Shown: piece after piece, positions 31,542 to 62,857 of the stretch
How the letters are laid out: each line of letters begins with the position of its first letter
Numbering within the stretch: the first letter of the stretch is position 1
NCBI GenBank assembly: GCA_023954155.1
Contig: JAMLIO010000004.1
Coordinates: 436 to 64,435, forward strand
Reading direction: 5' to 3'
DNA: 64,000 bases
Source: Pseudobdellovibrionaceae bacterium
Lineage (GTDB): Bacteria; Bdellovibrionota; Bdellovibrionia; Bdellovibrionales; UBA1609
Program-made: the position numbers and the translations under genes
The notes under the pieces: generated by a model
Told to the model about the DNA's origin: nothing
Databases searched by the model: none
The model's input: the letters and a program-made list of their open reading frames with translations, nothing else

Positions 31542-32678
31542 CTAAGGCATTTTTAATTCTTTACAAAATTGGATAAAAGGCAAAACCCTGCCGTTAGGAG
31601 CACTTCCGTAGTCTTGTGTTCCCAGGTGAACTTGATAGAAGGCGGGGATGTCGGTGCGCTCCTTAAAATATTGGATATGTGTCGAGAGCTTTTTTTCTCC
31701 AGTTTTACATTCTACGGCAAAAATGGGTTTTTTGTTTTTTAAAACTACAAAATCTATTTCTCGTCCATCTGTGTCTCTTAAATATCGAAGCTCCATATTA
31801 TAACCTTCGGTGTCTTCAATATAATGACAGAATTTTAAAAGCTGGCTGGCCACTAAATTTTCGAATCGAAATCCTCTTTCATCGACTTGGGACCAATCCC
31901 ATAAGTAATATTTTTGAAGTTTTTTAACGGCTCTGATTTTTTTTGCGCCATAAGGAGCTATCGAAAAGCAATAGTAAAGGTGAGACAAGATTTCTAACCA
32001 ACGTTTAATAGTGGGTTGAGAGACTTGTAAGTCCTCTTCGAGACTTTTTAAAGAAAGTGGGGACCCGACTCTAGACGGGAGAAGCTCTGCGAGTAAAAGT
32101 AAAAGAGATGTGTCTTTAACATTTTCTAAATCATTAAGATCTTCGTAAACAACTTTTTGCATTCGGTCTTTTTGCCAAATTCGGTGTTCGTTCTCATTTT
32201 TTGCAAATAAGGGTTCTGGAAATCCTCCAAATTGAAGTAAATTTTCTAAGTCTTTAGGGGAAGGGTTTTTTTTGTATTCTAAAGCAGAAAATGGATGAAG
32301 GCGAAAATATCTATACCTGCCAAGTAAGGAATCTCCTCCCTTTCTGAAATAATCTAATTTTGCTGACCCAGTTACAATAAACCGATGATCTTCTTTGTGT
32401 TTGTCATATAAACCTTTTAATAAGTTTCTCCATTTTCGATACTTATGAATTTCATCAAAAATGAGAATTTTTTCTTGTAAAGGAAGCTGATTTTTCAAAA
32501 TAAGAGACTTATCTAAGGTGTCATCCCAATTTAAGTAGGATTTGTTTTTAACGGTTGAAGGCGAAACAAAAGCTAAGCTTAAAGTGGTTTTACCCACTTG
32601 GCGAGGACCTCCAATAAAAACCATTTTTTTGTTTAATGCGGATTGAATATGGGGGCTGAGGTATCTTTTTGTTTTCAT
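31542..32678 (-). CDS. AAA-family ATPase with DUF4143 C-terminal domain (COG1373-like)
   Basis: Walker A FIGGPRQVGKTTL, Walker B ILIFDEIH, size of about 380 aa. Confidence 0.75.
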   Translation of the reverse strand: MKTKRYLSPHIQSALNKKMVFIGGPRQVGKTTLSLAFVSPSTVKNKSYLNWDDTLDKSLILKNQLPLQEKILIFDEIHKYRKWRNLLKGLYDKHKEDHRFIVTGSAKLDYFRKGGDSLLGRYRYFRLHPFSALEYKKNPSPKDLENLLQFGGFPEPLFAKNENEHRIWQKDRMQKVVYEDLNDLENVKDTSLLLLLAELLPSRVGSPLSLKSLEEDLQVSQPTIKRWLEILSHLYYCFSIAPYGAKKIRAVKKLQKYYLWDWSQVDERGFRFENLVASQLLKFCHYIEDTEGYNMELRYLRDTDGREIDFVVLKNKKPIFAVECKTGEKKLSTHIQYFKERTDIPAFYQVHLGTQDYGSAPNGRVLPFIQFCKELKMP

Positions 32679-32781: not shown

Positions 32782-32848
32782 ATGAGTAGTTTAAAGTCAA
32801 CTTTGAAACACTCATGAGTAGTTTAAAGTTGACTTTAAACTACTCATG
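32782..32848. repeat. Two tandem palindromic units (operator-like)
   Basis: Unit 2 (32813-32848) is CATGAGTAGTTTAAAGT-TG-ACTTTAAACTACTCATG, a perfect 17+2+17 palindrome. Unit 1 (32782-32815) is ATGAGTAGTTTAAAGT-CAA-CTTTGAAACACTCAT, imperfect. The half-site ATGAGTAGTTTAAAGT repeats with a 32-bp period. Confidence 0.85.
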
Positions 32849-33244
32849 ATAAGGTTTGTTCTAAAATAAGACATCGTGGGCCGCATTTTATACTAATCGA
32901 CTTTATCAAGGCCTTTACGGGGTGGTTCCAAGCTTATCTAAAAATATCCGAAACTCAGCATCCATTGTGTGGATGCTTCAATTGCGCTGGATTTAAGCTT
33001 GTACAGATTTTGCGAGGACTTGGTTTTGATTCGTTTGGACTCTTTTATATACGAAATAGAAAAGATGGGTCCAAATATCATCTCATTATGAAGCGGTTTG
33101 GGCTCCTTAATTACCGATTTTGACCTGATCTCGCTTTATATTGGATTACACTAGGGTAATAAAAATCTTTACTTATTATATTTAATAAGTTGTAAGGATA
33201 GGCAACTTGGGTCAATGGCAAGTCAGATTTGAAAGTGCGAAATT

Positions 33245-42138: not shown

Positions 42139-43365
42139 ATGACAAATATCCTTCTGCTCGAAAAGATTCATTCCATCGCAAAAACTCATTACGAAGCCCA
42201 CGGTTTTCAAGTGACCGAACACGGTCCGTCTGAAACAGGGGCCCCTTTGGTGGGGCTTCTTAAGGGACAAGATATTGTGGGTTTACGGTCTAAAACTCAG
42301 CTCACTGGCGAGGTCTTACAAGAGTCACCCCATCTATCCGCAGTAGGAGCTTATTGTATAGGCACAAATCAAATCGACTTACAAACTGCATGCAAGTTGG
42401 GAGTCGCCGTATTTAATGCCCCTTTTAGTAACACTCGAAGTGTAGCCGAGATGGTGCTAGCCGAGATCATCTGTCTAGCGAGGGGTTTGTTTGCAAAATC
42501 CCAAAAGATGCACGCAGGAATCTGGGAAAAGTCAGCTGCAGGATCAAATGAAATCCGTGGAAAAGTTTTAGGCATTGTGGGTTATGGCCATATTGGCTCC
42601 CAGGTTGGAATTTTGGCTGAAAGCTTAGGCATGAGAGTGATCTTTTACGATGCCATTAAAAAATTACCCTTAGGAAACGCTGAAGAGATGATGACTTTGG
42701 GGGACGTACTCAGTCGTTCCGATTTTGTCACACTACATGTGCCACTGGATAAAACTACAGAGTGGATGATCGGCGAAAAACAATTTTCCATGATGAAAAA
42801 GGGTGCTGCATTTATCAACGCCAGCCGAGGACATGTCGTGCGTTTAGAGGCTTTAAAAAATGCTTTATTAACAGGGCATATATCAGGTGCTGCGATCGAC
42901 GTTTTCCCAGAAGAGCCCAAAGAAAACAACAGCACCTTTGCCCATGAGTTACAAAATATAGAAAATGTCATCTTAACTCCACACATCGCGGGAAGCACGA
43001 TTGAGGCCCAAGAGTCTATAGGAGTGGAGGTCACAGAAAGCCTGATCCGCTTTATGAAAACGGGCCATTCTGTGGGGGCTGTGAACTTCCCACAACTGTA
43101 TTTATCTGAACTGCAATCTGGCTACAGAATCCTAAACGTTCACAAAAACGTGGCAGGAGTCCTAGGGGAAGTAAATAAAATCTTCTCTCACCACAATATA
43201 AATATCTTAAGCCAACAGCTAAAAACCAACGAACAGATAGGGTATTTAGCGGTAGACGTAGAGGGCGCGGTAGACCCCAAAGTCGTAGATGCAATAGCCC
43301 ATCTGCCCACCTCCATCAAAACCCGCTTTCTTGCCAGCGAAGAGTTAGGTTCTAAATTTATTTGA
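42139..43365 (+). CDS. serA: D-3-phosphoglycerate dehydrogenase with C-terminal ACT domain
   Basis: GIVGYGHIGSQVG NAD-binding block, the catalytic-region block TPHIAGST, and an ACT domain. The last 13 codons lie inside palindromic element A. Confidence 0.9.
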   Translation: MTNILLLEKIHSIAKTHYEAHGFQVTEHGPSETGAPLVGLLKGQDIVGLRSKTQLTGEVLQESPHLSAVGAYCIGTNQIDLQTACKLGVAVFNAPFSNTRSVAEMVLAEIICLARGLFAKSQKMHAGIWEKSAAGSNEIRGKVLGIVGYGHIGSQVGILAESLGMRVIFYDAIKKLPLGNAEEMMTLGDVLSRSDFVTLHVPLDKTTEWMIGEKQFSMMKKGAAFINASRGHVVRLEALKNALLTGHISGAAIDVFPEEPKENNSTFAHELQNIENVILTPHIAGSTIEAQESIGVEVTESLIRFMKTGHSVGAVNFPQLYLSELQSGYRILNVHKNVAGVLGEVNKIFSHHNINILSQQLKTNEQIGYLAVDVEGAVDPKVVDAIAHLPTSIKTRFLASEELGSKFI

Positions 43366-43672
43366 AGTTTAAGTTTTGTCTTTGAATTTTAAGTTTTCTT
43401 AGAGATACATCTATCGAATGGCAGCTCCGAGCGAGCAATGCGTATCCGACTTGCGGCATAACTTTTGAATTGAAGTTTAATTTAAGGGAAGCTCCAAAGA
43501 AGTTTCTCTTAAATTAAACTTCAATTCAAGTTATGACGAAAGCCGAGACGCTTTGCACCCGAGTCGGCCTGTCTGCCATTCGATAGATGTATCTCTAAGA
43601 AAACTTAAAATTCAAAGACAAAACTTAAACTTCAAATAAATTTAGAACCTAACTCTTCGCTGGCAAGAAAGC
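43325..43672. repeat. Palindromic element A: exact 100-bp inverted arms around a 148-nt quasi-palindromic centre
   Basis: 43325-43424 is the exact reverse complement of 43573-43672, verified base by base. Inner near-perfect stem 43457-43486 / 43508-43535. Confidence 0.95.
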
Positions 43673-57174: not shown

Positions 57175-57198
57175 TACCCGTGCGGAGATAGCCTTGTG

Positions 57199-57357
57199 GT
57201 CCATTCAGGATTTCTAGGTTCAGTTTATAAATATATAGTGTGAAAATGTGAGTTCGGCTTGGCATGCTTTTGCGAACGCAAAATCATGCCAAACGTCACT
57301 GTCTGAGCATTTTTGCACTATATATTTATAAACTGAACCTAGAAATCCTGAATGGAC
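57199..57357. repeat. Palindromic element B: perfect 42-bp arms around a 75-nt conserved core
   Basis: 57199-57240 is the exact reverse complement of 57316-57357. The core (57241-57315) contains hairpin TTGGCATGCTTTTGCG-AA-CGCAAAATCATGCCAA. Confidence 0.95.
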
Positions 57358-57366
57358 TCAAAGTGA

Positions 57367-57963
57367 TTAGCCCGCAGAGGGGAGGATTTCAAAGATGACG
57401 AGGGTGCGGACTTTGGAGCTGCTTTTGACTTCGTAGATTTCAAAGGCTTTGTCATTAAGGATAAGATGATTTTCTAGGGCGGTTTTTAAAATCTTAGGAT
57501 AAATTTTTATAGCTCCTAGTGCAGGCGAACCATCGAAGGCGCCCATAATATAGGAGTTGAATTTGATCTCATCAACTTTATAGTTGTGACTTTCAAATTC
57601 AGGATTTTGAGTCAGGTGTGTGAGGTCGGTTGCGCTTTCTAATAAGCAACCTACATGACTTCTCAGACGATGATGATCTACACCGCTGGGGTTATCTAAA
57701 TAATATCCAAAGGTGCGTGCACAAATAATTCCATGGGCTTTGGCAAACTCTTCCACCTCTGTGATGTGTGGGGCCACTTCGTGATAGGGGCCCACAACTT
57801 CTTTAAATATAATTTTGTGGGGTCCAAAAGGTGTATCGGTAAAGACGTCGACTTGAACAGGCAAGTGGAAGCCTGCTCGAAAGGCGATAAAAACTAGAAG
57901 ACCAATGATACCTAAAAAAAATCCAGCTACTGTGCCAGAAAACCATTTCATAATTGATTCCAA
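57367..57963 (-). CDS. Membrane-anchored GyrI-like / effector-binding-domain protein
   Basis: N-terminal TM helix. The remainder resembles GyrI-like small-molecule-binding domains (GPYHEV...HGIICARTFGYYLDNP). Low certainty. Confidence 0.5.
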   Translation of the reverse strand: MESIMKWFSGTVAGFFLGIIGLLVFIAFRAGFHLPVQVDVFTDTPFGPHKIIFKEVVGPYHEVAPHITEVEEFAKAHGIICARTFGYYLDNPSGVDHHRLRSHVGCLLESATDLTHLTQNPEFESHNYKVDEIKFNSYIMGAFDGSPALGAIKIYPKILKTALENHLILNDKAFEIYEVKSSSKVRTLVIFEILPSAG

Positions 57964-60932: not shown

Positions 60933-62012
60933 GTGATTAAACGTATTGATACCTACATTCTGACAAGCTTTTTGACCTATTTTGCGGTCTCTTTATGTGT
61001 GCTCTTAGTGCTGTTTTTATCTGTGGATTTGATGTCTAGTCTTAATAGATTCGAGGTGGGAGGAACTATCCTGCTTTCGTACTACATCAATTATTTACCT
61101 TGGATCGCTTATCATATGGCCCCCATTTCTGCTTTGTTAGCCATGGTTTTTTTGATGACAAGGCTAGTAAAGTCTAGTGAGCTGACCGCCCTCTTTGCCT
61201 CTGGTTACGGACTTTTTCGTATTATAGGGTCGGTCTTAGTTTTTTTAGTGTTTCTTACAGTAGGAATGTTTTGGTTTGGCGACCAAGTGATGCCAACAGC
61301 CATGGATAAGCGTTATTACATTTATTATGTCGAGATGAAAAAAGACCCTAATCGTTATTCTAAAACTCGTCAGAAGAACATCTGGTACAAAACTGAAGAT
61401 GCCATCATTCATTTTAATGAAATTTTAAGCCCTAATAATGTGGCTGGGGTGCAGTTATTTTTTATTGATCCAGAAAGCTGGATGCTGCAAAGCCATTACG
61501 AAGCCAAAAATCTGACTCTCAAGGATGGGTTTTGGGTTCTGGCTGATGGGCAGAAATCGCAATACGACAAGACCTCAGAAAAGTTTCAGGTGAGCGATTT
61601 CAAAGAGGCTGTGCTGCCTGCAGTAACACAAGTCGAAGACATGCAAGTCAGTGGTGAAGCCACAGAAAACCTAAGTCTGAAGGACCTACGGCATCTGATT
61701 CGACAGAATGAACGCATTGGACTGCAAAACCATGACATTAAGGTGATCTATTGGAGCAAATTTTCTTTTGTCCTCACAGCCTTAATCCTCCCACTCCTAG
61801 GACTCTCCATGACTTCCGTAGATCGCAGAGGAGGCAACGCCTTTTTAGGAGCCTCCATCGGCGGCTTTATGGTTCTTGCTTATTGGATTTTATACAGCTC
61901 CACCTTGTCTATAGGAAAAGCCGGTTTCATCCCACCTTTTGCCGCCGCTTTTATGGTCCCTATGTTAGGCTTTATCTTAATAGCAGCGTTGATTCAAAGA
62001 GTCCTCAAGTGA
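60933..62012 (+). CDS. LptF/LptG-family LPS export permease
   Basis: MIKRIDTYILTSFL... N-terminus and a 6-TM YjgP/YjgQ architecture with a periplasmic beta-jellyroll region. GTG start. Confidence 0.8.
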   Translation: MIKRIDTYILTSFLTYFAVSLCVLLVLFLSVDLMSSLNRFEVGGTILLSYYINYLPWIAYHMAPISALLAMVFLMTRLVKSSELTALFASGYGLFRIIGSVLVFLVFLTVGMFWFGDQVMPTAMDKRYYIYYVEMKKDPNRYSKTRQKNIWYKTEDAIIHFNEILSPNNVAGVQLFFIDPESWMLQSHYEAKNLTLKDGFWVLADGQKSQYDKTSEKFQVSDFKEAVLPAVTQVEDMQVSGEATENLSLKDLRHLIRQNERIGLQNHDIKVIYWSKFSFVLTALILPLLGLSMTSVDRRGGNAFLGASIGGFMVLAYWILYSSTLSIGKAGFIPPFAAAFMVPMLGFILIAALIQRVLK

Positions 62013-62022
62013 GTCAAAAATA

Positions 62023-62246
62023 GTCTTGTCTGTAAAAACCCGCAATGCAGTGTTGCGCCTCCCGTTGGGTCTTTGGGGTTTGTTTTTGATTATATATACT
62101 CAAAATGCTCAGACAGTGACGTTTGGCATTCTTTTGCGTTCGCAAAAGAATGCCAAGCCGAACTCGCATTTCGACCATATATATAATCAAAAACAAACCC
62201 CAAAGACCCAACGGGAGGCTCGCGTGCGGGTTTTTAAAGACAAGAC
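62023..62246. repeat. Palindromic element C: 22-bp outer arms + perfect 42-bp arms around a 79-nt core homologous to element B
   Basis: 62057-62098 is the exact reverse complement of 62178-62219. The outer pair 62023-62044 / 62225-62246 matches 21 of 22. The core hairpin is TTGGCATTCTTTTGCG-TT-CGCAAAAGAATGCCAA. Confidence 0.95.
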
Positions 62247-62272
62247 CCAGTTTTTTTGTTACAACAAAGCCT

Positions 62273-62857
62273 ATGGCAGTATTAGAAGTATTATTATATC
62301 CAGATCCGCGTTTAAGAAGAAAAGCTAAACCTATTGAAGCAGTGACTCCTGAAATCCAAAAGATTGCTGAGGACATGCTTGAGACTATGTACCAGTATAA
62401 AGGTATTGGTCTTGCTGCTACACAAGTCGGTTTAGAAATTCGTATTTTAGTGATTGATACACGTCCTCGTGATGACAAAGATAGATATGAACAAGATGGA
62501 ATGACTGAACTTGAAAAGCAAGTGGCTCAGCCTCTAGTCATTATCAATCCCGAGATTGTGGAACAAAAAGGCGAGTCTACATTTGATGAAGGTTGTTTAA
62601 GTATTCCTGGATATTTTGAAACTGTAAAACGCCCAGAATATGTCGAGATCAATGCCCTGAATGAGAAAGGGGAAAAGATCAATATCAAAACCGATGGGCT
62701 TTTAGCCACTTGTATTCAACATGAGATTGATCATTTGGATGGAAAGCTTTTTATTGATCGTTTAAGTGTGGTTCGTGCCACTCGTTTGAAAAATAAGATC
62801 AAAAAGAATGGTTATCCTGATCCTGATGAAGAGGCGGCAGAGGAAGCTGAAGCTTAG
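62273..62857 (+). CDS. def: Peptide deformylase
   Basis: MAVLEVLLYPDPRLRRKA..., EGCLSIPG, HEIDHLDG. ATG 62273. The ORF track start 62123 lies inside palindromic element C and is spurious. Confidence 0.92.
   Translation: MAVLEVLLYPDPRLRRKAKPIEAVTPEIQKIAEDMLETMYQYKGIGLAATQVGLEIRILVIDTRPRDDKDRYEQDGMTELEKQVAQPLVIINPEIVEQKGESTFDEGCLSIPGYFETVKRPEYVEINALNEKGEKINIKTDGLLATCIQHEIDHLDGKLFIDRLSVVRATRLKNKIKKNGYPDPDEEAAEEAEA

Follow-up and report, generated by a model that had tools for sequence, protein, structure and literature searches.

A nested palindrome between lptG and def

The window (the whole stretch of DNA that was analysed, 64,000 nucleotides) belongs to a Bdellovibrionaceae/Pseudobdellovibrionaceae MAG, from an uncultured Bdellovibrio-like bacterium, and its SerA is 100% identical to MCO5113711.1, a protein of such a MAG. 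The spacer between lptG and def is occupied by a nested palindrome, referred to here as element C. Its main inverted repeat (62057–62098 / 62178–62219) consists of two 42-nt arms that are 100% complementary and lie 79 nt apart, and it is enclosed by an outer inverted repeat of 22 nt (62023–62044 / 62225–62246) with one mismatch (G opposite A). The two repeats are separated by bulges of 12 nt on the left (62045–62056) and 5 nt on the right (62220–62224). An earlier description of this DNA from its letters alone (the sequence-only reading) had given the same architecture, and had also named an A5 run before the left end, a T7 run after the right end and an (AT)n tract at the core-proximal end of the arms in both C and a second element, B; all of these were recovered, the A5 run at 62016–62020, the T7 run at 62251–62257 and the tract as (TA)n. 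The core of C additionally holds a perfect 16-bp inner hairpin (62123–62138 / 62141–62156) that is absent from the earlier description. The predicted RNA fold of 62010–62262 has a free energy of −143.8 kcal/mol, compared with −58.1 ± 4.5 kcal/mol for shuffled sequences (z = −19.3), and the DNA fold of the same segment reaches −93.1 kcal/mol (z = −17.5), which is structure far beyond chance expectation. The parts of the locus, together with element B, are as follows.

57199–57357, minus strand: element B, paralogous copy of the C family, with 42-nt perfect arms and a 75-nt core, in opposite orientation and between convergent genes
62013–62022, no strand: distal degenerate end of the putative left inverted copy of the def promoter, GTCAAAAATA, similar to the reverse complement of CCAGTTTTTTTGTTAC and including A5; based on a global alignment of C with the reverse-complemented spacer of the relative L009 and on direct reading, and weak when taken alone
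62023–62044, no strand: outer left arm GTCTTGTCTGTAAAAACCCGCA, an inverted copy of the −35 region of the def promoter
62045–62056, no strand: 12-nt left bulge ATGCAGTGTTGC
62057–62098, no strand: left main arm, 42 nt, perfect; the inner ~17 nt (GTTTTTGATTATATATA) are common with B and the outer ~25 nt are copy-specific
62099–62122, plus strand: conserved asymmetric 5' core segment, with CTCAGACAGTGACGT invariant in C, B and L009
62123–62156, no strand: inner hairpin TTGGCATTCTTTTGCG-TT-CGCAAAAGAATGCCAA
62157–62177, plus strand: conserved asymmetric 3' core segment, with GCCGAACTC..CATTT invariant in the three copies
62178–62219, no strand: right main arm, 42 nt, perfect complement of 62057–62098
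62220–62224, no strand: 5-nt right bulge TCGCG, matched in L009 by the same 5-nt gap between arm end and TGCGGG
62225–62246, plus strand: outer right arm, ancestral def-upstream sequence, with −35-like AAGACA at 62237–62242
62247–62265, plus strand: rest of the putative def promoter, outside the element; spacer with T7 at 62251–62257, TG at 62257–62258 and −10-like TACAAC at 62260–62265

The outer stem and the def promoter

Alignment of the 70 nt upstream of def revealed a block, AGACA-N7-GTTTTTTTG-N-TA, without any variation among five species, including three that lack the palindrome. In one relative (L027) the block reads CAGACA-17-TATAAT with TG upstream, a strong, textbook extended −10 promoter, and its equivalents in the window are AAGACA (62237–62242), a 17-nt spacer that includes T7, the TG dinucleotide and TACAAC (62260–62265). 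Since the block is conserved with or without the palindrome, the right outer arm and the T7 run are read as part of the conserved def promoter. The left outer arm is present in a strain at 99% identity (L002) and has no counterpart in L009, L003, L024 or L027, and so has to be an inverted duplicate of the promoter region. Degenerate similarity of this putative inverted copy extends to the lptG stop codon, and the A5 run can be explained as a part of that extension. None of 2000 shuffles of the flanks reached the score of the outer stem of C, whereas outer stems and flank-derived repeats picked out by eye around B, around a third element in the window (A) and around the L009 copy were not significant against shuffles. 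The outer stem is thus significant at C only, which marks it as a feature of this locus rather than of the family.

The symmetry of the palindrome also disturbs gene calling. Three long ORFs across C had been dismissed as spurious in the sequence-only reading, and all three were found again (62014–62478 on the minus strand; 62026–62328 and 62123–62857 on the plus strand). The ORFs across C and B are by-products of palindrome symmetry. ORF 62123–62857 is def with a 150-nt upstream extension that reaches into the core and begins at the TTG at 62123; translation from the actual start codon, the ATG at 62273, yields a 194-aa deformylase with EGCLS and HEIDH motifs, and the def orthologues of relatives are called from the same start position. 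Look-ups of the exact sequences of the 194-aa Def, the 311-aa Fmt and SerA (P0016) returned no gene on record; Def may have escaped because it is publicly annotated from another start, probably one that makes the gene too long. For annotation, C accounts for three spurious ORFs and a likely mis-called def start, and the T-run at 62251–62257 should be annotated as def promoter and not as a terminator.

Elements B and C share an asymmetric core

The kinship of B and C had been proposed from their common architecture, and this part stands: a perfect-stem scan gave B arms of exactly 42 nt (57199–57240 / 57316–57357), equal to those of C, although they reach 50 nt if two mismatches are allowed, and the units delimited by the 42-nt perfect inverted repeats measure 163 nt in C and 159 nt in B. 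What had been missed is that both contain a homologous core, held in opposite orientation. The C core is the reverse complement of the B core with 94.3% identity over 70 nt, while the core of the L009 copy is 90.3% identical to that of C over 72 nt and 88.7% identical to that of B over 71 nt. Two core words (CTCAGACAGTGACGTTTGGCAT and GCCAAGCCGAACTC) are invariant in the B, C and L009 copies, and two others (TGCTCAGACAGTGACGTTTGGCAT, a 24-mer, and ATGCCAAGCCGAACTC, a 16-mer) occur within the window only at B and C, on opposite strands. A profile of the core searched with nhmmer against the window and all fetched loci matched B, C and L009 with no further copies, and the core is described here from these three copies, two of which lie in 64 kb. 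Homology between B and C runs on into the inner ~17 nt of the arms, (TA)n tract included. By these alignments, B and C are two copies of one family, with a conserved asymmetric core and largely copy-specific arms. Moreover, stem positions 8–9 of the inner hairpin covary among copies (TC/GA in C vs AT/AT in L009, a compensated double change). This compensated change and the conservation of the core (89–94%) far above the fast-changing arms suggest that the core is the constrained part of the element.

Several observations concern the surroundings of B and the junctions of convergent genes. The proteins on either side of B retain conserved C-termini, and B is flanked, 13 nt out on each side, by TGCGG (57181–57185) and CCGCA (57372–57376), which recall the CCCGCA/TGCGGG around C; these motifs were considered as a flank-derived repeat around B and dropped, as they were not significant against shuffles. 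At the site equivalent to B, a relative with 82% LptG identity (L003) carries an IS-like insertion (positions 391–1473 of that locus) that codes for a protein of 285 aa containing an InsA-type zinc ribbon and is bounded by 31-nt terminal inverted repeats, the right one of which provides the last codons of the adjacent 196-aa gene. The intergenic site of B seems to tolerate or attract insertions. In a more distant genome (GCA_043764155.1; 47% LptG identity; L010, 428–502), two convergent genes meet at a perfect hairpin of 34 bp whose loop measures 7 nt, and the wider lineage may characteristically carry long perfect hairpins where genes end.

The lptG–def spacer in relatives

Orthologous lptG–def spacers were compared on the contigs of LptG homologues, which are few and represent five lineages. 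The 99% strain carries the element and differs from the window only at position 62056 (C in the window, A in L002); its contig ends 30 nt into the left arm, as would be expected of an assembly break at a long inverted repeat, and C-family elements account for short-read assembly breaks at these loci in the lineage. In L009, with 84% LptG identity, the 196-nt spacer contains a core 90% identical to that of C but flipped, placed between 31-nt perfect arms of other sequence that continue imperfectly outward. Neither palindrome nor core is present in the relatives at 82, 77 and 73% LptG identity, whose spacers measure 93, 94 and 565 nt; the loci without a palindrome are L003–L008, L024–L026 and L027, where def and its promoter are intact. 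The sequence-only reading had held that palindrome-free orthologous spacers with unchanged def expression would speak for a selfish insertion and against a regulatory role, and three relatives have palindrome-free spacers beside an intact def promoter. Their existence implies that C is an insertion relative to the wider group and argues against a required regulator.

The L009 copy sits at the same place as C: the distance from the right core edge to the def ATG is 95 nt in the window and 94 nt in L009, and in both species 5 nt separate the arm end from TGCGGG. On the basis of this position and of a weak similarity of the arm ends, we infer that C and the L009 copy descend from one ancestral insertion, with the arms having diverged in concert and the core having flipped since; the alternative is that the two are independent site-specific insertions.

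In the species represented by SRR14005098, the spacers have other contents. The lptG–def spacer (L027, 4192–4518) holds one 108-aa ORF instead of the element, the product of which has a signal-peptide-like N-terminus, and the spacer after serA (L031, 4048–4830) is taken up by a pair of ORFs, 108 and 107 aa long. All three small products are mutually unrelated.

Arms are perfect within copies and divergent between copies

Comparison of the whole arms of C and B gave p ~ 0.002, but the outer 25 nt alone were not significantly similar (p = 0.18). Similarity between the arm ends of C and L009 is weak (p ~ 0.02–0.06), the outer end of the right main arm of C reading CCCAACGGGAGGC vs CCCAAACCAGGAGC in L009. 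The arm sequences have no other occurrence in the window or the compared loci. Those of C did not resemble the spacers of L003 and L024, which are free of the element, although these spacers are saturated and therefore uninformative. Within copies, by contrast, the match is complete: the perfect arm pairs of C (42 nt), B (42 nt), A (100 nt) and L009 (31 nt) contain zero mismatches and zero G–T pairs in ~215 bp in total, which points to a Watson–Crick process acting on DNA rather than to selection at the RNA level.

A process of this kind has been described for bacterial DNA, as template switching during replication renders quasipalindromes "perfect or more perfect" (PMC7202029). The quasipalindrome reporters in E. 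coli lacZ are alike in that one arm is copied from the other at the DNA level (PMC7202029), and such copying would fit both the arms of the C family, perfect within a copy and divergent between copies, and the inverted promoter copy. They are unlike it in that template switching is known for short quasipalindromes as a mutational mechanism and not for the maintenance of a repeat family, for which it is inferred here.

RNA-level interpretations of element C

The sequence-only reading had suggested that C could act as a bidirectional terminator, a suggestion that the comparisons do not support. C does resemble intrinsic bidirectional terminators in being a hairpin at a gene end that lies between an A-run and a T-run. 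However, its stem is about ten times the usual length (intrinsic terminators have a short loop and a GC-rich stem of 5–12 bp, directly followed by a U-tract of their own), and the T-run, which begins 4 nt past the outer stem, lies within the promoter block shared unchanged by five species, of which three are palindrome-free. The A5 run falls within the degenerate inverted promoter copy, no gene on the minus strand reads into C, and the sister elements B and A have no flanking T- or A-runs, although both lie between convergent genes, a setting in which bidirectional termination would be sensible. A scan for the terminator pattern found only a 7-pair hairpin (62228–62248) followed by the T-run. 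The terminator reading appears locus-specific and weak.

A broader form of the same idea is that the host selects C as an RNA hairpin (a terminator, insulator or 3'-end stabiliser) that splits the lptG transcript from def, with the stems kept by selection on RNA structure. The position of C between the lptG stop codon, which it follows directly, and the def promoter, its extreme stability, the flanking A5 and U7 runs, the location of B and A likewise at gene 3' ends and the conservation of the core between species are all compatible with such a role. Three relatives nevertheless manage without C while their def promoter is intact, the U7 is a promoter spacer that is found without any hairpin, and B and A lack U-tracts. 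Zero G–U pairs in the ~215 bp of perfect stems would be unusual under RNA-level selection. Furthermore, the core is inverted between the orthologous loci and between B and C, and in one orientation the complement would be transcribed, which is hard to reconcile with a sequence-specific role of RNA in the read-through transcript. Taken together, a host-selected RNA hairpin is unlikely.

Conservation of the core much above that of the arms, covariation in the inner hairpin and the symmetric TTGGCA...TGCCAA dyad would also be expected if the core held a self-contained small-RNA gene or an operator (TTGGCA-N22-TGCCAA) used by the host, with the arms being incidental. This is the least probable of the readings weighed here, because Rfam contains no matching family, the inner hairpin is not followed by a U-tract and the core is missing in relatives that retain all neighbouring genes. 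The σ54-like TGGCA..TTGC within the hairpin is spaced GG-N9-GC, whereas the canonical spacing is N10 (consensus from general knowledge), and a σ54 promoter was rejected on this reading. Candidate σ70 promoters in the inner hairpin (TTGGCA-17-AAGAAT on both strands) were no better than shuffles.

Core orientation and an invertible switch

The core differs in orientation between the orthologous copies of the window and L009 as well as between B and C, and perfect inverted repeats around a short asymmetric segment are the architecture of an invertible switch (inverton, flip-flop), in which the arms would recombine and the core would carry an orientation-dependent signal, such as a promoter, towards def or lptG. 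The −10-like tracts TATACT / TATAGT, 7–8 nt upstream of the invariant GCTCAGACAG, could be taken for such a signal, but the promoter matches are no better than those of shuffles and def has its own conserved promoter. A segment of 75–79 bp is, from general knowledge, very short for recombinase synapse, and no recombinase is found among the called neighbours (response regulator, QRPTase, LipB, LptG, Def and Fmt). Differences in orientation are to be expected anyway, as inverted repeats of 42 nt will recombine from time to time. The flips observed, C vs L009 and C vs B, are evolutionary only, and we consider a switch highly improbable.

A probable MITE-like foldback element

On balance, C is probably one copy of a small, lineage-restricted, non-coding family of nested palindromes of ~160 nt ("foldback", MITE-like), in which an asymmetric core of 75–79 nt with a 16-bp hairpin is enclosed by two arms of ~42 nt. 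As in MITEs, C and B are short non-coding units bounded by terminal inverted repeats, and the element is variably present at orthologous sites, being found in the window, L002 and L009. Sharing of terminal repeats among copies is clear only for the inner ~17 nt of the arms, as judged from two copies in 64 kb and one in a relative. A convincing direct target-site duplication was found neither at C (TTGC|TCGC, matching at 3 of 4 positions) nor at B (TGTG|TCAA), although drift of the arm boundaries could have erased one. The window contains no transposase or parent IS with matching ends, and the 31-nt terminal repeats of the IS-like insertion in L003 are unrelated. The terminal repeats of typical MITEs are better conserved than any other part, whereas those of the C family are the least conserved. 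Membership of the C family among MITEs is, on this comparison of sequences, unproven.

The closest analogue is CREE of Neisseria, a bacterial MITE type that combines inverted repeats with a conserved core and affects neighbouring genes (PMC2649163). Both are small (~100–160 bp), non-coding and intergenic, carry terminal inverted repeats around a characteristic conserved core, vary in presence among related genomes and adjoin promoters; a transcribed CREE folds into a long hairpin that is a possible RNase III substrate (PMC2649163). The differences are nevertheless considerable. CREE has 26-bp repeats that are conserved over ~100 copies and inserts at TA with duplication, while the arms of the C family are 42 nt long, perfect within a copy and largely different between copies, with (TA)n at the inner and not the outer arm end and without a target-site duplication. 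Only two copies are present in 64 kb, and an IHF-site consensus was not recognised on reading the sequence.

REP/BIME elements often lie at gene 3' ends or between convergent genes and can stabilise the upstream mRNA. They resemble the C family in being palindromic and extragenic with a central conserved motif, as in RIP/RIB, in which two inverted REPs surround such a motif. However, REP units are imperfect palindromes of 20–40 nt with a genome-wide consensus and a RAYT transposase, whereas the arms of the C family do not recur in the window, lack a common consensus over their outer part and contribute to a stem of ~90 bp in total; no RAYT gene was seen among the neighbours. Membership of the C family in REP/BIME is not supported.

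If C is a foldback element of this kind, its history could have been the following. The element would have arrived between lptG and def before the window species and the L009 species diverged, and recombination of the two arms, or a template switch from one to the other, would later have flipped the core. The arms would be kept perfect on the DNA itself, by gene conversion or by template switching within the molecule, as in quasipalindromes, and the same process would have copied def-promoter sequence across to the other side. The core may be constrained as a mobilisation site or a protein-binding site. A likely by-product is that lptG transcripts running on into C would carry a ~90-bp hairpin at their end, a possible barrier to exonucleases or RNA polymerase and a possible target of RNase III, with a precedent in CREE of Neisseria (PMC2649163); def itself would be transcribed from its own promoter. 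The immediate significance of C for the function of lptG or def appears small.

A different origin of the arms is conceivable, in which the core directs hairpin-primed (fold-back) DNA synthesis and the outer arms are inverted duplications of the target rather than parts of a transposed unit. It would explain why B and C, with unrelated outer 25 nt, both have perfect arms of a length of exactly 42 nt. That C has as its left outer arm an evident inverted copy of flanking def-promoter DNA also speaks for it, as does the match between the distance from core to def (95 and 94 nt) and the length of the empty spacers (93–94 nt); in element A, an arm overlaps and rewrites the 3' end of serA. On the other hand, a weak common arm-end motif (CCYRAA..GGAG(G)C) in C, L009 and B suggests descent, a flank-derived outer repeat is not detectable at B, A or L009, and there is no candidate for the enzyme. 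The dissimilarity of the C arms to the element-free spacers of L003 and L024 counts against it formally but, given saturation, says little. Such de novo synthesis of the arms is very unlikely. The more general proposal that the conserved asymmetric core is a cis-acting module seeding self-perfecting, outward-growing palindromes by fold-back or template-switch synthesis is speculative and quite unlikely. If true, each copy would gain locus-specific, perfectly matched arms of a set length (42 nt in B and C) and could capture inverted neighbouring sequence, for example the def promoter at C and the serA 3' end at A, and inverted repeats would be generated in a way distinct from the transposition of a fixed unit.

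The C family offers a compact natural inverted repeat with a conserved centre and arms that evolve in concert. What sets it apart is that a core both conserved and able to flip is joined to arms that match each other perfectly yet vary from one copy to the next; at C itself, the centre appears to have flipped between species and one flank, the promoter, to have been duplicated in inverted orientation. Should the family prove abundant in the genomes of these predatory bacteria, it would lend itself to work on how bacteria form, keep perfect and tolerate long palindromes.

Searches of databases and literature

The family appears to be undescribed. A 20-mer of the core had one match among the GTDB representative genomes, a chance match within a Nitrospirota protease CDS, and an 18-mer had chance matches only, to unrelated sequence at 12 loci in JGI metagenomes and one locus in IMG/VR. 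Searches of C and A with blastn against phage and plasmid collections gave nothing meaningful, a profile of the four open frames of the core had no match among 5.8 billion predicted proteins, and a literature search on palindromic repeats in Bdellovibrio found nothing relevant. Rfam gave no match to A, B or C at gathering thresholds; the best matches below threshold were plant miRNA-precursor models (63 bits, with 144 needed), which reflect the generic hairpin shape.

Element A and a palindrome pair in a low-GC stretch

Element A (window 43325–43672) follows the same design as B and C, with 100-nt perfect arms around a 148-nt, partly palindromic centre that has its own hairpin with 29-nt arms (43465–43529), but its core is unrelated to those of B and C. 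Its left arm starts in the last codons of serA (42139–43365), and the window SerA ends in KTRFLASEELGSKFI*, compared with KTRFVIP*, KTRHLTY* or KTRLIY* in relatives. The contigs of three relatives end 15–37 nt past serA, which suggests that long repeats are located there too; in L031, with 75% SerA identity, only a 13-bp hairpin is present, at the serA stop codon.

A further palindromic feature of the window, at 32782–32849, is a tandem pair of a ~33-nt palindromic unit (ATGAGTAGTTTAAAGT..ACTTTAAACTACTCAT). It lies ~100 nt upstream of a minus-strand AAA-ATPase-like ORF (31542–32678), within an island-like stretch of low GC content (32–37% GC, ~22–34 kb), and may be an operator pair.
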